Shown: piece after piece, positions 6,839-64,000 of the stretch
How positions within the stretch are numbered: position 1 is the first letter of the stretch
How the letters are laid out: every line of letters begins with the position of its first letter
Origin: a phage
Strand: one strand, 5' to 3'
DNA length: 64,000 nucleotides
Sequence record: PV419677.1
Notes under the pieces: generated by a model
Database searches by the model: none
The model's input: the letters and a program-made list of their open reading frames with translations, nothing else
What the model was told of the DNA's origin: nothing
Translations under genes and position numbers: made by a program

Positions 6839-7072
6839 TTAAACTACTGGGGTAGGCGTAAACATCGCCGCGTTCTTAGTTCGCCAATCAGCTGCACTAG
6901 ACGCTACGGTGACATAAGCGGCCTTTTCGGAAGGAAAAGTCTGATAGTGTGCATTCGCAATACGATGCTCATTTGAATAGATTTCAAACGGAACAGATAC
7001 TTCAACACCTTTAACTTCTTTACCTTCACCAGCTGGATGCGTAAAGGTTTTGATATTAACGAAACCACCCAT
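6839..7072 (-). CDS. soc: small outer capsid protein Soc
   Basis: 77 aa; VNIKTF...HYQTFPSEKAAY matches remembered T4 Soc. Confidence 0.85.
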   Translation of the reverse strand: MGGFVNIKTFTHPAGEGKEVKGVEVSVPFEIYSNEHRIANAHYQTFPSEKAAYVTVASSAADWRTKNAAMFTPTPVV

Positions 7073-7113
7073 AATTAACTCCTTTGTTGTTTAATTACGG
7101 GTGTATTTATAAC

Positions 7114-7632
7114 TTAATAACCCCGGTCCTGACGAGCGAAGTTTTCAGCATTTTTCAGGTAATACAGTTTAAAGATTTCTTCTGCTGACAGACCAAGACC
7201 ATGGAACATGTTCAGAACAAAGTGCAGGATGTCAATCATCTCAAATTTAATTTCGAGCTGGTCTTCAGGAGACAACTCATCAATACGACGATTACGGAAT
7301 TCAGCATGTTGGGCTTTCCACGGTTTCCAACAACTTGAGGCTGCTTTCTCGCCATTAGACATACCCCCGAGAGAAGTCAGAAGTTCACGGAATTCATCAT
7401 CGACATAATCTTTCTGGTTGCGAAGCCATGCAACAACATCACCTGCAGTAGCCAATTCATCTGGATGTGAGTTATATTCAGGTTTTTCGGTAGCCAGACG
7501 AACTTGCAATGATTTCTGCATATCAAGCATAATCTGCAGCGGGTCAATACCTTTTGTAATTGCATTGTCATAAGCCAGAGCAGCTTTATCAACGCCAGCA
7601 ATCAGTTGTGAACATTCATTAAAATGAGCCAT
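7114..7632 (-). CDS. 56: dCTP pyrophosphatase gp56 (MazG-like)
   Basis: MAHFNEC start at ATG 7630-7632 with AAGGA SD; about 172 aa; position next to soc. Confidence 0.75.
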   Translation of the reverse strand: MAHFNECSQLIAGVDKAALAYDNAITKGIDPLQIMLDMQKSLQVRLATEKPEYNSHPDELATAGDVVAWLRNQKDYVDDEFRELLTSLGGMSNGEKAASSCWKPWKAQHAEFRNRRIDELSPEDQLEIKFEMIDILHFVLNMFHGLGLSAEEIFKLYYLKNAENFARQDRGY

Positions 7633-7671
7633 TATATTTTTCCTTATCAATTCATGTTATTTTGTATGTTA

Positions 7672-8033: not shown

Positions 8034-9062
8034 CTAAACTTTTGCGTACTTCGAAAGTCGCATTCTCGCCATCAACCCTTGAGCAACGTTATCGGCCATA
8101 TATGATTCGATTTGTTCAGGGGTTGCGCCCTCCGATTTAACCATCTCATTTATGTCTTTCGTATGCCATGGTGCATTGTCCCAGAACATAACGGCTTCAC
8201 CCGCTTCAACGAGCTTCTTCATACGTTTAATCGTATCCGGATGTCTTGGCTCGTTGTCCATTACCCATACTCGGGTTTCAGCATAAGGAACGGCTTCCAA
8301 TGCTAATGTTCCACCAGTTATCGCAATGCTGTTAGGGATAAACAAACTATCAATCGGACCTTCCATTACCCACACGCGCTTGCGCTCATCAATCTTGTCT
8401 ACGCCATAGACTTTGGAAGCTTCTGGGTGAGCTTTGATTGTGATATATTTTTGTGGTGCATCTTTGCGAAGAGCTCGTCCTTGGAAAGATTCGATTTCTT
8501 TTTTGCCGTTGAAGATAGGAATAACCAAGCGTGGTTCATTCGTTTCATTCTTATACGTCCCAGGATTAACGGAGTTAACTAATGCAGGCCATTTGTTTGT
8601 AAACCATAACCGGTTCCAAACATTGCTCGGAATACACCGACTTTTTACATACTTAACTATCGGATGCTCTTCTGGTAAAGTATCAATTCTTTCACAAAAA
8701 GCAAGCTCTTCAATAACCGGAGTTTTTTCTGGTTCTTTCGGAGCTTCTGCAACTTCATTACGTTGTCGACCGAAGGCATTCTCCTTATACTTCTCAACCA
8801 TATATTCCCGGTGCAAATCCGGCTCAAACTCTTTTATGTATTTGCTTATATGCGTGGAGTAGTCACAGTTAAAACATTTCACGTAAACCGCACCATCAGA
8901 CGGATTGGTATACGCCCAGAATCGAGCCTTGTGCGAATCTTTCTGGGAGTCACCACAAACCTTGCAACGACAGTTTGCCTTAAATGTGCTCCCGGTGACT
9001 TCTCTATAACGTGGTTGATACGATAAAGCTCTGACTGCAAATTCTCTATCAATATATGACAT
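8034..9062 (-). CDS. 61: DNA primase gp61
   Basis: 342 aa; N-terminal zinc ribbon CKVCGDS...CFNC, TOPRIM-like core; size as T4 gp61. Confidence 0.9.
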   Translation of the reverse strand: MSYIDREFAVRALSYQPRYREVTGSTFKANCRCKVCGDSQKDSHKARFWAYTNPSDGAVYVKCFNCDYSTHISKYIKEFEPDLHREYMVEKYKENAFGRQRNEVAEAPKEPEKTPVIEELAFCERIDTLPEEHPIVKYVKSRCIPSNVWNRLWFTNKWPALVNSVNPGTYKNETNEPRLVIPIFNGKKEIESFQGRALRKDAPQKYITIKAHPEASKVYGVDKIDERKRVWVMEGPIDSLFIPNSIAITGGTLALEAVPYAETRVWVMDNEPRHPDTIKRMKKLVEAGEAVMFWDNAPWHTKDINEMVKSEGATPEQIESYMADNVAQGLMARMRLSKYAKV

Positions 9063-9094
9063 AGTTTCCTCATTTCAATGCCCCCGAAGGACCA

Positions 9095-9262
9095 TTATAC
9101 TGTAGGTTTATCGTCTTTATTCTTACGCTTTTTTGATGGGATTTGTTCAGGGCCTTTATTGACAACTGCCCCGGAAGTGGTACCTGTTGCGATATTAGTT
9201 GGGTTTCCACCTGCATCACCGGCAACCATATCTTCGTTGATAAAATCTTTGAATGTTTTCAT
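9095..9262 (-). CDS. small protein with capsid-targeting-like N-terminus
   Basis: ATG 9260-9262 with AAGGGGG SD; 55 aa; N-terminus MKTFKDFINED resembles the T4 internal-protein CTS. Confidence 0.45.
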   Translation of the reverse strand: MKTFKDFINEDMVAGDAGGNPTNIATGTTSGAVVNKGPEQIPSKKRKNKDDKPTV

Positions 9263-9278
9263 AACACCCCCTTTCCGC

Positions 9279-9286
9279 TATTTATA
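9279..9286 (-). promoter_or_regulatory. T4 late promoter-like TATAAATA
   Basis: exact TATAAATA on minus strand about 17 nt upstream of the ATG of the 9095-9262 gene. Confidence 0.4.
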
Positions 9287-9473
9287 CAACGAAGATAGCT
9301 TTATCACCATTTGCATCAGTCACTTCATAAGTGTCTTCATGATACAACGGAATAATCCAGGTAACACCATCATCAGCGATAACATGGATTGCTTCTTGGT
9401 CTTGCGACACGATTTCATATTCTTCAAAAATCTGGAAGACCGAAATCTTAGAGCCCGTACACATTGCAGTCAT
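9282..9473 (-). CDS. hypothetical protein
   Basis: 63 aa acidic ORF. Confidence 0.4.
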   Translation of the reverse strand: MTAMCTGSKISVFQIFEEYEIVSQDQEAIHVIADDGVTWIIPLYHEDTYEVTDANGDKAIFVV

Positions 9474-9474
9474 A

Positions 9475-9843
9475 TTAACCTCGCTTCATGAAAGCATTAA
9501 AAATCTGGTCATCAATATCAGTAGGCGGTTCTTGAGATTTAACCCAGCCAGCATCCAGAATGTCATTTGCTTCAGTAGATAGCATGACCCCAATTTCAGG
9601 ATTTCCGGTTATCCACGCTGCACAATCGCGTACATTCTTTTTATCAAATGGATAGCCACGAGTATCTTCATAAGGCCCATTCATTACCATAAATGAGCGA
9701 GCCTTTATGATAACGCCATCTTTAACAATAATATAACCAATCGCCTGATTATAACGAGGCTCGCGGAATTCATAATGAGCATTACCATCATTATTTTTAA
9801 CTAATTCAAAATTCAGATAAGACAAATCGCTTTGAATATACAT
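9475..9843 (-). CDS. hypothetical protein, paralog A
   Basis: 122 aa; C-terminus DDQIFNAFMKRG shared with next gene. Confidence 0.55.
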   Translation of the reverse strand: MYIQSDLSYLNFELVKNNDGNAHYEFREPRYNQAIGYIIVKDGVIIKARSFMVMNGPYEDTRGYPFDKKNVRDCAAWITGNPEIGVMLSTEANDILDAGWVKSQEPPTDIDDQIFNAFMKRG

Positions 9844-9844
9844 A

Positions 9845-10282
9845 TTAATCTCGCTTCATAAAGGCATTAAAAATTTGGTCGTCAACTGAATATACAGGGG
9901 TTTCCAGAAGTTTCAAAAGACTGTTTTTAATGTACTTACCCGGGATACCCATATTAACAATACTGTCATTCAATTCATTGTTAGGATTGATGTCTTTAAA
10001 TTCAAACCCATCAAATTCAACCTTGTCAGGAATACCATCAGCGAAAAAATAAACCAATTGGTGCATTGTATTGCATGAAAATAATTTAGACTTGACTGCA
10101 ATAAGTTCTTGCCAATGGTTTAATTCTTTGTTAAGAAGCTTATGAGCAAACGTAATTCTATCATCACTATCAACAAGAAAATAACCCAGGTATTGAATTT
10201 CGTCGCTCCAAAACACCCGGTATGCCTGTGCATTTGGATTTTTACAGCGAAGTTTTTTGATAACTAAATTTCTGTTAATCAT
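9845..10282 (-). CDS. hypothetical protein, paralog B
   Basis: start trimmed to ATG 10280-10282; C-terminus DDQIFNAFMKRD. Confidence 0.55.
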   Translation of the reverse strand: MINRNLVIKKLRCKNPNAQAYRVFWSDEIQYLGYFLVDSDDRITFAHKLLNKELNHWQELIAVKSKLFSCNTMHQLVYFFADGIPDKVEFDGFEFKDINPNNELNDSIVNMGIPGKYIKNSLLKLLETPVYSVDDQIFNAFMKRD

Positions 10283-10283
10283 T

Positions 10284-10577
10284 TTATTCACCTGTAACCC
10301 ATTGAACAATTTTGCTATTGTCAAATGAAGCATCGCAATACAGAACATAGTTATACTGCATAACGTCACCAGAAGTCAATTGGTCAGATACTTCTTTAAC
10401 CATATCAGGGTGGTCACGTTTAGTTATGTTCATGATATCAGCATAAATCTGATGTTCAACATCAGTCTGGTCGGCAGTCATAGACCACTCACAAAGGTCT
10501 TTATCAAGTCCAGCAGTAACTGGAGCTGTACCACATGATGCTACGGTAAGAATTGCCGCGATTAATAACTTTTTCAT
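10284..10577 (-). CDS. putative lipoprotein
   Basis: 97 aa; signal peptide with lipobox-like TVASCG. Confidence 0.55.
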   Translation of the reverse strand: MKKLLIAAILTVASCGTAPVTAGLDKDLCEWSMTADQTDVEHQIYADIMNITKRDHPDMVKEVSDQLTSGDVMQYNYVLYCDASFDNSKIVQWVTGE

Positions 10578-11399: not shown

Positions 11400-11438
11400 T
11401 TTATTCTCCAGTAGTTGATAGAGTCATTATAACATAAG

Positions 11439-11460
11439 AAAAAGGGGCTGTAAGCCCCTT
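11439..11460 (-). terminator. intrinsic terminator hairpin
   Basis: minus strand GGGGC-TTACA-GCCCC followed by TTTTT. Confidence 0.55.
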
Positions 11461-11467
11461 TGTTCAC

Positions 11468-11866: not shown

Positions 11867-13306
11867 TTAAAATTTCATTTGAGCAGCAAGGTCATCCAGG
11901 TCGCTCCTGTTGACCCTGGTTTGTCGATTCATTTCGGCCTGGCGATTCATCTCACCGGTGGCTTCTTTAACCGTAGGGCCTTGTTTAGGAGCCGAATCAT
12001 CATCAACCTCATACCAGCGCTGATTACCTTTCTTAACACCCATCTTGAATTTATTATAGTAGTTCTTATCACCATAACGAGACTTAAGCTGTTTGATTAA
12101 CTGCAGCCCCATTTGAGCGAATTCTTCGGTCTCAACAACACCCAACATAAAGTCAGCCGTGTGAGCAATACCAAAGGATTCTGCAATGTCAGCCATATCA
12201 ATCTCGGCTGCAACGTTAGCGCCCCTGGTTGTCTGCGCTGCAGTCCACAAGACCACATTTTTCTCAACTGCCAACCCACGAAGTTCTTCTGCAACCATCT
12301 TAATCAGACCGTAACTGTTTTCGGTAAACGTTTTCAGTCTTGAGCTTGCACAGATTGCCAGGTAGTCAACAATAATCACATCCGGTACAAACCCTTGCTT
12401 CAGTTTGTATTCGTTCAGTAATGCACGGAAAGTATCCGCATGAGCACCACCAGTTGGATATTGTTTTATCTTCAGAGTCCCAAGAGTCCCGGAAGCACGC
12501 CATTTTTCCATCTTAGCTTTATATTCTGCCCATGATATATGACCTTCATCAATATCATCCAGAGACACATCCAGCAAGTTGGCATCAATACGTTTGGCAC
12601 ATACTTCTTCGGCCATTTCCATGCTTATATAAAGAACGTTATGACCAGTCTGAAGATAGTCAGCCGCTAACGAACAAAGTCCTAGAGATTTCCCGACGTT
12701 TGTCCCGGCCAGTAAAACGTTCTCTGTACCATACTCAACTCCACCCTTCGTGATTTTATTCAGGATGTTAATGCGGAACGGAACCTTTTTCGATTTGTTC
12801 AGATAAGTCTGGAATCGAGCTTCGTAATCGTTTAACCAGTCATGGCCCAGGGCAGAGTCAAAACAGATAGATAATGCATCACGCATGATATCAGGGATAG
12901 CACCAATATCCGGGATTCGTTTATCACGTTTATCTTTCGGAAGTTCGGCATTGCTCTGGATTTCGATAATCCTGGATGTAGCATTGAACATCGCAGACTT
13001 CTGTACATACTTCTCGGTTTCTCTAACCAACCATTCCTGGTCTTCTGGAGTATCGGCCAAGACTCCTAAGAGTTTCTTGGTGCCTTCATATTCAACTTCA
13101 GAAAGGTCAGAACTGTCGAGCGCGATATCAAGTGCAGTCTTAGTTGGCACCGCCTGATATTCTTTTACGTGTTCGTTAATCGTATTAAAAAGGGTCTTCG
13201 CTGGACCCTTTTCAAAATATGTGCTATTCAGATATGGCCAGACTTTAACAAAATATTCCTTGTTAAAGAGCAGCTGGGATAAAATAGTTTCTACCACTTC
13301 CACCAC
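11867..13306 (-). CDS. 41: replicative DNA helicase gp41 (DnaB-like)
   Basis: 479 aa; Walker A GTNVGKS; colinear with remembered T4 gp41. Confidence 0.9.
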   Translation of the reverse strand: MVEVVETILSQLLFNKEYFVKVWPYLNSTYFEKGPAKTLFNTINEHVKEYQAVPTKTALDIALDSSDLSEVEYEGTKKLLGVLADTPEDQEWLVRETEKYVQKSAMFNATSRIIEIQSNAELPKDKRDKRIPDIGAIPDIMRDALSICFDSALGHDWLNDYEARFQTYLNKSKKVPFRINILNKITKGGVEYGTENVLLAGTNVGKSLGLCSLAADYLQTGHNVLYISMEMAEEVCAKRIDANLLDVSLDDIDEGHISWAEYKAKMEKWRASGTLGTLKIKQYPTGGAHADTFRALLNEYKLKQGFVPDVIIVDYLAICASSRLKTFTENSYGLIKMVAEELRGLAVEKNVVLWTAAQTTRGANVAAEIDMADIAESFGIAHTADFMLGVVETEEFAQMGLQLIKQLKSRYGDKNYYNKFKMGVKKGNQRWYEVDDDSAPKQGPTVKEATGEMNRQAEMNRQTRVNRSDLDDLAAQMKF

Positions 13307-45268: not shown

Positions 45269-45340
45269 AAGGACTCCTATTGTTGGTCATGATTACGCTT
45301 TGCAGCCTTAACATAGCGGAATACTAGTTAGTAACTGTAT

Positions 45341-45616
45341 TTATAGACGTTTAAAATTAAAGCAGTACTCTGAAAATAAACCTGCAAAATTACGTTCAAC
45401 CCAGACCCGTTGTTTTGGGCTAGTGACCATTGACAAATAGTATGCTTGTTGCAGGCTTATTCCATTTTTATTAGGACACTCTTTGTTGAACGAGTGATAG
45501 GTACTTGCAACGATTTCGACTTCGCGCTCATACCTTTCCTGGTCCTGCTGCATAGGAACAAAAACCAAAACCAGGAATATCAAAATAGAGATATACGTCC
45601 AAACCTTGTATACCAT
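45341..45616 (-). CDS. small membrane-anchored protein
   Basis: 91 aa; N-terminal hydrophobic helix. Confidence 0.4.
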   Translation of the reverse strand: MVYKVWTYISILIFLVLVFVPMQQDQERYEREVEIVASTYHSFNKECPNKNGISLQQAYYLSMVTSPKQRVWVERNFAGLFSEYCFNFKRL

Positions 45617-50244: not shown

Positions 50245-50508
50245 TTACGCTTTACCGCCAGAAACAATACCAAAGGTATCAAAATCCCATTCAATATTGT
50301 CAACATCAACTTTCTTACCAGCAACCACGAATGCGATTTCGCGGCGTTTTGCATAGGTAACAATTTCTTTACCATCGCCGCCAAAGAAAGAATAACCATT
50401 GCGCTTCATGGTGCCAAAGTCTTCAGCATCACCAGCGAAGGCGCGGACTTTAAAAGCACCGGTAGGAGCTTTAGCAGATTCAGTAATAAATTCTTGATAA
50501 GTTTTCAT
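50245..50508 (-). CDS. internal protein (IPII-like) with capsid targeting sequence
   Basis: start trimmed to ATG 50506-50508; MKTYQEFITE CTS; GDAEDF...KRNGYSF shared with 61805-62104. Confidence 0.6.
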   Translation of the reverse strand: MKTYQEFITESAKAPTGAFKVRAFAGDAEDFGTMKRNGYSFFGGDGKEIVTYAKRREIAFVVAGKKVDVDNIEWDFDTFGIVSGGKA

Positions 50509-61470: not shown

Positions 61471-61749
61471 CTAAATTTTTGTATATTGTCCAGCTTTAAC
61501 TTTTTTCAGTTCACGAGGGCTTACCGCATAAGTGAATGGAGCATTCCAGGAAGAACTGACTTTGTAACCTTTAGTCAACATCATTGCTGAAACTTTCTTG
61601 TTATCAGGACCGTTTTCGCCTTTAACAAGAAACAACTCAAATGCGCCACCATCAACCGGTTTGGCCTTAACCATCAGATGTCCTTTCAGGTCTTCCAGCA
61701 TGTCCGGGTGACTAATTGATTCGTTAATAAATTCTTGATAAGTTTTCAT
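61471..61749 (-). CDS. internal protein (IPI-like) with capsid targeting sequence
   Basis: 92 aa; N-terminal MKTYQEFINE; early promoter/leader motif upstream. Confidence 0.6.
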   Translation of the reverse strand: MKTYQEFINESISHPDMLEDLKGHLMVKAKPVDGGAFELFLVKGENGPDNKKVSAMMLTKGYKVSSSWNAPFTYAVSPRELKKVKAGQYTKI

Positions 61750-61804
61750 TAGTAGCTCCAGTAGTTGATGGGATAATTATACTGCAACTATCCCATCACG
61801 TACA

Positions 61805-62104
61805 TTACATTTTTGAACCACGAATTACGCCATAAGCGGCGAAGTCGTCAGTGATATTTTTAGGAGTGTTTTTACCCGTTTCAATGAAAGCAATGCTTGA
61901 TTTCTGACTAAAAGAGGTAATTTTGTTATAGTTAGAGTCAAGGAAGGTATAACCATTTTTACGCAGCTGGTCAAAGTCTTCAGCATCGCCTTTACCTTTG
62001 AAGTCAACCCATTTGTAGGTGTTTTTCTTCTGAAGGCCCAGAGGCCAGGTTTTTGCTTCCGCCAGGTAATTGTTTTCTACCAAAAATTCATGGAGCGTTT
62101 GCAT
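61805..62104 (-). CDS. internal protein-like (CTS variant)
   Basis: 99 aa; MQTLHEFLVEN; GDAEDF...RKNGYTF shared with 50245-50508. Confidence 0.55.
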   Translation of the reverse strand: MQTLHEFLVENNYLAEAKTWPLGLQKKNTYKWVDFKGKGDAEDFDQLRKNGYTFLDSNYNKITSFSQKSSIAFIETGKNTPKNITDDFAAYGVIRGSKM

Positions 62105-62112
62105 TTGAAATC

Positions 62113-62385
62113 CTATTTTAGATAAATTGCGTATTTTTTATAACCAGCTGTCTCATGACGGAGACCCTTGTCATTGGCAAAACGCTCAATGTTATTAATT
62201 TGGTTCTGGTCAAGTTCTGAAATGTCAAACGCGAAAAAGTTGCGTTTGTTGCCAATTGTTATATGGTCAGTTAAGTCAATGCTATACAGGTGATTGATAT
62301 TGTCAATCATAGCTTTGACTGCTTTACTAATTTTTACTTCTTCATTCAGTTGTGACTCGTTGAAAAATTCATTGAAAGTTTTCAT
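62113..62385 (-). CDS. internal protein-like (CTS)
   Basis: 90 aa; MKTFNEFFNES. Confidence 0.55.
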   Translation of the reverse strand: MKTFNEFFNESQLNEEVKISKAVKAMIDNINHLYSIDLTDHITIGNKRNFFAFDISELDQNQINNIERFANDKGLRHETAGYKKYAIYLK

Positions 62386-62393
62386 AAGAAACC

Positions 62394-62726
62394 TTATTTA
62401 TAAAGTTTTGCCAGTTCTTTACGTCCGCGAGCAGACATAATAAATTGTTCATCGCCAATTTTAAAATAAGCCATACCGCCGTCAACAGCGATACCAATTT
62501 CTTTAGTACCTTCTTTGCCTTTCCACTTGCCACCAGATTTCAGGACAGCTTCAACTGCAGCTTTGGAATATTTGGACGTTTGAAAACGTTCATTACCAAT
62601 CTGAAAGAAAACACCATCTGCATTTTTGGTTAAACCAAATTTCAGAGAGCCTTCACTATCATCAATTGATTTGGTCTCATTGATGGCGGATTCGGCTAAA
62701 AACTCGTTGTAAGTTTTGATGTTCAT
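62394..62726 (-). CDS. internal protein-like (CTS)
   Basis: start trimmed to ATG 62724-62726 (GGAG SD); MNIKTYNEFLAES. Confidence 0.55.
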   Translation of the reverse strand: MNIKTYNEFLAESAINETKSIDDSEGSLKFGLTKNADGVFFQIGNERFQTSKYSKAAVEAVLKSGGKWKGKEGTKEIGIAVDGGMAYFKIGDEQFIMSARGRKELAKLYK

Positions 62727-62789
62727 ATTAACTCCATTGTTCATTCGTTGGTGTAGGAACATAATACTGCACCTACACTTATTTGTACA

Positions 62790-63481: not shown

Positions 63482-64000
63482 TATATTACCTTATTAATTT
63501 TATCAAAAAGTTCTTCGAGTGTGCCATTGTTTTTAATAACAATGTCACTAGCTAGTGGTGGAAGTCCAGCTTCCGTAATGTGTGTATCAGTAGAATGATT
63601 TGCTTCATCGCGTTCTACAAAGATTATTGTAGCACCCATCGCCCGAAGCGAATCAAGTTCGTTCTTTTGACGAACATCTGGGACAACGTAATATTTATAT
63701 CCAGAATAGAGGTTGTCAAGATAATCGCACGCAAAAGTTTTAATCCAAAACATGCTGTCGAACTCTGTACAAACGATGTCAGTTCCAAGGGTCTGCATGA
63801 AACGTCTAACTGTCCAGGGCTCAACATTATTTAGTGTGTGAAATTCAATGATTTTACGAACCATATCTGGATTCGGAAGGTCAAGATTGTATTGTTGTTT
63901 CAACCATTCAAGAGCATCAACCAGAAGAATATAAGCTTCGGTGTTGTTCATTATCAAGGTTTTTTCACGGTCATAACCTTGTCCATCAAAATTTTCCAGG
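63481..64000 (-). CDS. 1: dNMP kinase gp1, partial (5' end beyond window)
   Basis: C-terminal region WxVRRxMQxLGTD...DTHITEAGLP matches remembered T4 gp1; frame open upstream of the listed Met to the window edge. Confidence 0.75.

Follow-up and report, generated by a model that had tools for sequence, protein, structure and literature searches.

Gene 61.1 of T4-like phages: a paralogue of part of gp23 and a candidate head-assembly peptide

We studied a short gene in a 64,000-nucleotide stretch of phage DNA (PV419677.1), which we call the window. The gene, 61.1, lies at 9095..9262 on the - strand and has an ATG start, 55 codons, and a TAA stop. Its product, gp61.1 (MKTFKDFINEDMVAGDAGGNPTNIATGTTSGAVVNKGPEQIPSKKRKNKDDKPTV; 55 amino acids), is a 5.8-kDa peptide with a pI of 9.2. 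Our comparisons indicate that the body of gp61.1 is an ancient paralogue of the segment in gp23, the major capsid protein, that comprises the cleavage site and the N-fist/N-arm, with a core of about 28-36 residues. Also, the core of the late promoter recurs upstream of the gene across the 61.1 family. We think that gp61.1 is probably a head-assembly peptide rather than the product of a replication gene. More specifically, the reading that we favor, tentatively, is that gp61.1 is made late and is processed in the prohead by the protease gp21.

A sequence-only reading of this DNA had picked out the same open reading frame (ORF), with its start MKTFKDFINED and its Shine-Dalgarno sequence AAGGGGG, and had suggested that it might encode a packaged internal peptide. 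The ORF and its Shine-Dalgarno sequence are indeed there. What that reading missed is the relationship to the cleavage site and N-fist of gp23, which is our main point.

Relationship of gp61.1 to head proteins

Residues 2-46 of gp61.1 align without gaps to residues 57-101 of T4 gp23 (45 residues, 44% identity, E = 2e-10 by BLASTP), and the gp61.1 of T4 aligns to gp23 likewise. The identity to the gp23 of a near-identical Gaprivervirus genome is 46%. When 61.1 was compared with the cognate gp23 in each of six genomes, the identity was 44-55% over 31-46 residues, and all but one of these pairs were ungapped. In a phmmer comparison to all PDB sequences, chains of gp23 were the sole matches (best E = 8.9e-5). 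Similarly, tblastn found matches to 61.1 in 1,453 phage records, and the weakest of these were to gp23 itself, at the start of major capsid protein genes. (The hosts of the matched phages include Escherichia, Klebsiella, Shigella, Aeromonas, Acinetobacter, Enterobacter, Yersinia, Salmonella, Citrobacter, and others.)

The alignment includes the site where gp23 is cut. Maturation removes 65 residues from gp23 and 10 from gp24 (PMC9546572); reading this number against the gp23 sequence places the gp23 cut after L63-T64-E65. This site (L63-T64-E65|A66) aligns with I8-N9-E10|D11 of gp61.1, with the P3 and P1 positions lined up, and gp21 is known to cut at I/LxE (PMC12991175). The cleavage-type glutamate is kept in every form, short or long, that we examined, and the P3 position is always Leu, Ile, Met, or Val. 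(E10 is invariant in our alignments A1, A2, and A5 and is at least 90% conserved in A3; each of the four alignments has 9-16 invariant residues.)

Beyond this site, residues 11-36 of gp61.1 correspond to the N-fist of mature gp23 (gp23*; residues 66-91; PMC7136217, PMC9958956), and residues 37-46 correspond to the start of the N-arm. G15, D16, I24, G27, T29, G31, G37, and P38 are common to both proteins. In the unexpanded head, residues 66-105 of gp23* are disordered and probably touch the scaffold (PMC9546572). Mutations that affect head length (A66D, A94V, and G97S) map to this segment, and the N-fist, once the head has expanded, binds four adjacent subunits and contributes to the Soc site (PMC9546572, PMC7136217, PMC9958956). 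The disorder predicted for gp61.1 matches that of gp23* 66-105: an AlphaFold2 model of gp61.1 has a mean pLDDT of just 61 and a pTM of 0.14, so the peptide is predicted to be effectively disordered alone. Each of the two segments is disordered when alone.

The resemblance does not extend beyond gp23 57-101. gp61.1 lacks residues 1-56 of gp23 as well as the whole HK97-fold body, and it does not match the Pfam family for gp23 (PF07068, which covers gp23 88-517). Where gp23 has MVRRAIPNLIAFD, gp61.1 has a basic tail. In some database records, relatives of 61.1 are labelled "major capsid domain-containing protein", which overstates their kinship with gp23.

Overall, gp61.1 reads as an internal-protein-type propeptide, followed by a gp23-type N-fist and a tail that is rich in lysine and arginine:

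9233..9262 (-): codons 1-10, MKTFKDFINE, a propeptide that resembles a capsid targeting sequence (CTS) and ends in I8-N9-E10, the I/L-x-E type of motif that gp21 cuts
9149..9232 (-): codons 11-38, DMVAGDAGGNPTNIATGTTSGAVVNKGP, the conserved core, which is paralogous to the N-fist of gp23* and the first part of its N-arm (gp23 66-93)
9098..9136 (-): codons 43-55, SKKRKNKDDKPTV, the Lys/Arg-rich tail

Within the tail, the initial Lys/Arg-rich segment is conserved and the C-terminal end is variable. In T4, the shared Lys-rich stretch is followed by an acidic end (KKKKEESKEKEE) and the whole protein has a pI of 5.5, whereas the tail encoded in the window is basic throughout.

We then compared the N-terminus of gp61.1 to those of internal head proteins. 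MKTFKDFINE is identical at 7 of 10 residues to the start of an internal-protein gene elsewhere in the window. When we searched all six frames of the window with a pattern for targeting-sequence-like starts, we found three ORFs:

9095..9262 (-): gene 61.1, MKTFKDFINE
61471..61749 (-): the internal-protein gene, MKTYQEFINE
50245..50508 (-): MKTYQEFITE

IPII and IPIII of T4 start similarly, with MKTYQEFIAE. According to a review of Black's work, positions 4 and 7 of the CTS are for targeting and positions 8 and 10 are for processing (PMC9026906). gp61.1 keeps all four (F4, F7, I8, and E10). IPIII has Y4 and F7, and the internal-protein-like genes of the window have Tyr or Phe at position 4 along with F7. 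These comparisons uphold the earlier description of the N-terminus as targeting-sequence-like. The 10-residue propeptide of gp24 (MAKINELLRE) also has the same spacing as the start of gp61.1.

gp61.1 therefore shares with IPI, IPII, IPIII, and the window's internal-protein-like genes a 10-residue propeptide of the form M-K-T-(Y/F)-x-(D/E)-F-I-x-E, with aromatic or hydrophobic residues at positions 4 and 7 as well as I8 and E10, and it is also small and basic. But it is much smaller than the internal proteins (45 amino acids after the putative cut), and its mature part is unrelated to any of them, being a gp23 paralogue instead. It is also encoded in the replication cluster, not in the internal-protein locus, and it is conserved across genera, while internal proteins are highly variable. 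Finally, the packaging and cleavage of gp61.1 are predictions.

The window's internal-protein-like genes are themselves a varied set. Four consecutive small ORFs with CTS-like starts lie at 61471-62762 (-), and a fifth is isolated at 50245-50508 (-); three of the five match internal-head-protein families in PHROG. Further variants of the start in the 61.4-62.8 kb cluster are MKTFNEFFNE, MQTLHEFLVE, and MNIKTYNEFLAE. This cluster looks like a diversified internal-protein locus.

Some phages have a long form of gp61.1 (146-177 amino acids) at the same gene position. These include S16 (gp18), Karamvirus, Acinetobacter, Serratia, and Aeromonas (65) phages and KVP40-type phages. The long forms match phrog_2086 and consist of a helical N-domain of about 105 residues followed by the 61.1 core at the C-terminus. 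They share with the window's 61.1 the core, the glutamate, the basic tail, the place upstream of the primase gene, and often an ATAAATA core upstream (see below), but the helical domain replaces the 10-residue targeting-like start. If gp21 cuts at the conserved glutamate, then the same peptide of about 45 residues would be released from both forms, with 10 or about 105 residues being shed.

The N-domain is related to phrog_18642, which is a family without a function. An AlphaFold2 model of the long form (pLDDT 62) is confident for residues 10-70 only and is mostly below 50 in the 61.1-like segment, so that the core is predicted to be disordered here as well, and a Foldseek comparison of this model to PDB gave no match with E below 7. 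We rejected the idea that the N-domain is a copy of the gp23 propeptide (1-54), as hhalign gave it a probability of 0.1%. Neither the 55-residue form nor the long form matches any family in Pfam or NCBIfam.

The N-domain also extends beyond the 61.1 family. A word-indexed protein search found only 21 short-form relatives; a profile search found 1,797 cluster representatives (E <= 1e-3) and was dominated by the long-form N-domain. These representatives are 79-490 amino acids long, and their C-termini differ. Among the distant members that we examined, several keep a segment of the form (L/I/V)-x-E - MV(A/T)G - TTGA, and one of these (P0179) also keeps a gp23-like PLAMVRR. The genomic context of P0179 was uninformative.

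We also considered exchange between 61.1 and gp23. Recent gene conversion is not supported, as the identity to the cognate gp23 is uniform across the six genomes. At one locus (L036, 1501-1671), the 61.1 core (GDGGYDADNIASG) resembles gp23 (GDHGYDATNIAAG) more closely than other 61.1 sequences do, which may reflect local gene conversion or convergence.

A late-promoter core recurs upstream of gene 61.1

The sequence-only reading had also reported an exact late-promoter box before this gene. The box is present, and the relevant features are:

9279-9286 (-): TATAAATA, an exact gp55-type late-promoter box, 16 nucleotides (nt) before the ATG, at position -13..-6
9273 (-): the predicted start (+1) of late transcription, placed 6 nt past the box by the -13..-6 rule, giving an 11-nt leader, AAGGGGGTGTT
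9267..9273 (-): the Shine-Dalgarno sequence AAGGGGG, 4 nt before the ATG

(The definition of the T4 late promoter, including the -13..-6 placement, is from PMC1524935.) On the - strand, the order is TATAAATA-GCGGA-AAGGGGG-TGTT-ATG. The predicted leader starts with the Shine-Dalgarno sequence, which is workable but short. The TAA stop (9282-9284) of the upstream 63-residue ORF falls within the box (GTA-TAA-ATA).

The number of boxes in the window is uninformative by itself, because there are 5 exact copies of TATAAATA and 5.1 are expected from shuffled sequences. All five are on the transcribed (-) strand. The other four are:

7104-7111 (-): 31 nt before a Soc-like gene
45338-45345 (-): 69 nt before an rI-like lysis-inhibition gene (phrog_1246); contains the TAA stop of the upstream gene
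62395-62402 (-): 9 nt before the ATG of an internal-head-protein gene; corresponds to the codons Y-K-stop
63692-63699 (-): 211 nt before a gp57A-like chaperone gene

With just 9 nt between it and the ATG, the box at 62395 cannot give the next gene a leader with a Shine-Dalgarno sequence.

Comparing related phages was more informative. We collected 64 loci that encode relatives of 61.1 and reduced them to representatives of each lineage. On the coding strand of these loci (about 100 kb), 6 of the 7 exact boxes lie 21-35 nt before the start of 61.1, and the six lineages involved differ in their flanks and upstream genes. Variants of the box with one mismatch are also more common than expected in the zone before 61.1 (7 observed and 0.95 expected). 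Since conservation of the box's first T is poor outside T4, and this base varies among other T4-like phages (PMC1524935), we also scored the ATAAATA core, using 28 lineages (87.7 kb). Of the 12 cores on the coding strand, 11 lie within a 34-nt zone, 12-45 nt upstream of 61.1, where 0.13 would be expected (binomial P ~3e-21). This P value is inflated because the lineages are related and are not phylogenetically independent, but the localization of the core before 61.1 is unmistakable. The cores come from 11 of the 28 lineages, with both short and long forms of 61.1; six of these lineages have the exact box and five more have NATAAATA. The ATAAATA core is missing from other gene junctions of these loci. 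The recurrence of a late-promoter core across the 61.1 family, as judged by sequence, suggests that 61.1 may be transcribed late.

The earlier reading had also contrasted this box with early-promoter motifs at the neighbouring genes. This holds loosely: the best sigma-70-like site near the locus is at 11454-11426 (-), about 2 kb upstream of 61.1. A hairpin (AAAGGGGCTTACAGCCCCTTT) at 11426-11461 (-) overlaps the -35 element of this promoter (CTTACA-17-TATAAT, with TG). The hairpin seems to resemble the promoter-early stem-loop cassettes of T4-type genomes.

The 61.1 locus and its neighbours

The 8-13 kb part of the window holds genes 56, 61, and 41 of a T4-like phage that belongs to the genus Gaprivervirus (VR7/SP18 type). 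A query of 701 bp that spans the 61.1 locus is 95-99% identical to 33 Gaprivervirus genomes. The genes of this region and the Soc-like gene, all on the - strand, are:

6839..7072 (-): Soc-like gene
7114..7650 (-): dCTPase-like gene
8034..9062 (-): primase gene 61 (phrog_47)
9282..9473 (-): ORF of 63 amino acids, directly upstream of 61.1
9475-9843 (-): ORF with an AdfA/61.2-type tail (phrog_4122)
9845-10369 (-): ORF with an AdfA/61.2-type tail (phrog_8539)
further upstream (-): spackle-like ORF, assigned by synteny with SP18
11867..13306 (-): helicase gene 41

The gene thus lies between gene 61 and the 61.x genes, as the earlier reading had placed it. The claim that it is unannotated was wrong. 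It is the ortholog of T4 gene 61.1: residues 1-52 match positions 1-52 of the 54 in the profile for phrog_1823 (E = 1e-32), and the T4 protein (NP_049649, T4p034; 54 amino acids) is 72% identical. Besides T4, the gene is annotated in SP18 (SP18_gp032) and in VR7 (as "61.1"); other records call it "hypothetical" or use the capsid label discussed above. The T4 and window genes share the position directly upstream of gene 61, the start MKTFK(D/E)FI.E, and the core. They differ upstream, where T4 has TATGAATA and the window has TATAAATA.

Gene 61.1 lies within the 41-61 interval, on the same strand and immediately upstream of the primase gene, and the order is identical in T4 and SP18. The position next to gene 61 is common to T4, SP18, VR7, S16, Aeromonas phage 65, and KVP40-type phages. 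The ratio of non-synonymous to synonymous divergence (dN/dS) is 0.09-0.33, relative to homologs whose synonymous divergence is saturated, so 61.1 is a real protein-coding gene, and these ratios indicate purifying selection.

We noticed a few other features of the locus. In T4, 61.2 (AdfA-type) abuts 61.1, while in the window the 63-residue ORF sits between 61.1 and the 61.2-type genes. The two adjacent ORFs at 9475-9843 and 9845-10369 (-) are otherwise different but have a common tail, DDQIFNAFMKR(G/D). This tail is similar to the terminus of T4 61.2 (..DDQIFNAFMNRG) and weakly matches the C-terminus of the Pfam family AdfA (anti-DarT factor); it could be a functional tail or a recombination joint. 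Between 61.1 and gene 61 there is a 32-nt spacer (9063-9094, -) with a small CC-UUCG-GG hairpin, whereas in T4 the stop of 61.1 is only 2 nt from the start of gene 61. The RNA fold of this spacer is no more stable than those of shuffled sequences (z = -0.59), and a scan of 8900-9600 with Rfam gave no match. Lastly, a 137-residue ORF at 9078-9491 (+) is antisense to 61.1 and to the 63-residue gene. It is most likely spurious because the frames on the - strand are the conserved ones.

Possible roles of gp61.1

Under our favored reading, 61.1 would be transcribed by read-through from early promoters and also, late, from its own gp55-type promoter. The peptide would join the core of the assembling prohead by means of its propeptide and its gp23-like segment, and gp21 would cut it after Glu10 to give a 45-residue peptide that starts with DMVAGD. 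Thereafter, the mature peptide could remain associated with the DNA, vie with gp23 for the scaffold, or occupy sites in the lattice. In concept, this resembles gp67 and gp68 of T4 (PMC9546572), which are also small; like them, gp61.1 would belong to the prohead core and be cut by gp21. But we see no likeness between their sequences and that of gp61.1 (we compared them by eye only), and genes 67 and 68 lie in the late head-gene cluster and encode documented head components.

A more specific idea, which we consider a long shot, is that gp61.1 is a free-standing N-fist, and that the 45-residue peptide binds sites that are normally used by the N-terminal segment of gp23. These sites might be on the gp22 scaffold in the prohead, and the peptide might then influence head length, because A66D, A94V, and G97S map to this segment of gp23. 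Alternatively, they might be sockets in the lattice of the expanded shell, left unfilled where its symmetry is mismatched. It would follow that the CTS of the internal proteins descends from, or imitates, the pre-cleavage segment of gp23 (AFGSFLTE). In that case 61.1 would be an intermediate form, and the N-domain of the long form would be an alternative targeting propeptide.

Several observations weigh against a late-made prohead peptide. The T4 61.1 transcript was classed as early, and the protein was not detected in a time-course proteome (PMC9697503, Table S2). However, that table likewise pairs "late" proteins with "early" transcripts for ipII, ipIII, e, and gene 40, and cleavage after E10 would leave a semi-tryptic peptide, which standard searches miss. 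Knockdown of T4 61.1 by CRISPRi-ART had no fitness effect, and neither did knockdown of gene 61 (PMC11879866). The text and accessible supplements of a T4 head mass spectrometry paper (PMC5694885) do not mention gp61.1, and our literature searches found neither a function for gp61.1 nor its detection in virions; its presence in proheads or virions is putative. As for the promoter, phages of the T4 group have TATGAATA instead of the exact box; the RB49-, RB43-, and S16-like lineages have no box; and the predicted leader is just 11 nt in the window and 8 nt in the lineage whose box is 21 nt upstream (L016-L021). A role for the tail in binding DNA is not conserved, given the overall acidity of the T4 protein. 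In addition, 61.1 is located in the replication cluster.

If the early transcription and the early gene cluster are taken at face value, then gp61.1 might be a decoy that is made early, stays outside the head, and imitates the N-terminal segment or the cleavage site of gp23. Such a decoy could absorb stray activity of gp21, tie up a host factor or an immune sensor for gp23 or for the protease, or adjust the way in which gp23 engages with the scaffold or chaperones. A disordered mimic of a gp23 segment is what this idea calls for, and counter-defence genes, too, usually have no effect on fitness in laboratory hosts. Also, hosts do sense gp23 (Gol/Lit with EF-Tu, PMC3014915), major capsid proteins (Avs7), and the activity of gp21 (CBASS CdnG). 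However, we set aside mimicry of Gol/Lit: the Gol region is described as the best-conserved part of gp23, at about residues 100-117 by alignment, which lies downstream of the segment that 61.1 resembles. There is no known defence system that reads gp23 residues 57-101, and an early decoy would not need the recurrent late-promoter core or an internal-protein-type propeptide. We consider a decoy to be unlikely, though not far-fetched. The other view that takes its cue from the cluster is that gp61.1 is a small partner of the helicase and primase and that its resemblance to gp23 and to the CTS is incidental. This view fits with synteny, since 61.1 strictly keeps its place between genes 41 and 61 in phages ranging from T4 to Aeromonas phage 65 and the KVP40 type, and also with the near-contact of 61.1 with gene 61 in T4, the early class of the T4 transcript, and the Lys/Arg-rich segment of the tail. 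But the similarity to gp23 is significant database-wide and includes the cleavage glutamate, the late-promoter core recurs directly upstream of 61.1, the two genes are separated by a spacer in the window, and we found no match to a replication-protein family in Pfam or NCBIfam. A replication accessory seems decidedly unlikely to us.

Another concern is whether TATAAATA is a promoter for 61.1 at all. It might have arisen as a by-product of the upstream stop codon, in a spacer rich in A and T, or it might be a late promoter chiefly for gene 61. The number of boxes in the window equals the chance expectation, the box at 9279-9286 contains a stop codon, the box at 62395 simply spells the codons Y-K-stop close to the next ATG, a very short leader would result, and the exact box is missing from T4. 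Against this, 11 of 12 cores fall in one narrow zone before 61.1 despite differences in flanks and upstream genes, and the core is absent from the other gene junctions of the same loci. We consider this explanation rather improbable. Finally, 61.1 is short, of low complexity (rich in Gly, Thr, and Lys), and has no Pfam match, as a chance ORF or a decaying, functionless fragment might be. But it is conserved in over 1,400 phage records and across many host genera, its dN/dS is low even with synonymous sites saturated, and every alignment has invariant residues. This conservation refutes the idea, which we give almost no credence.

We return to the prohead reading and to what it would mean. Gene 61.1 is one of the few ORFs that are conserved across the non-cyanobacterial T4-like phages and still lack a function (PMC1524935); Nolan et al. 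2006 listed it among the conserved ORFs of this kind (PMC1524935), and it has hitherto been read, by its position, as a member of the replication cluster. The paralogy with gp23, the relation between the short and long forms, and the family-wide late-promoter signal seem to be new, as we did not find them described in the literature that we searched. Were the decoy idea correct, gp61.1 would represent a new type of counter-defence, by mimicry of a capsid protein. As we read it, the sequence evidence instead gives 61.1 a concrete, testable role in head morphogenesis, with the putative cleavage, targeting, and role of the mature peptide to be taken as predictions, and makes it a new candidate for the class of CTS-bearing head proteins that are processed by gp21, to which the internal proteins, Alt, and gp24 belong. 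If this is correct, then gp61.1 would be a new component of the well-studied T4 prohead, and through it the capsid targeting sequence would be tied to the propeptide of the capsid protein itself. Cargo could also be loaded into T4-type capsids with a second natural tag, in a short or a long version.

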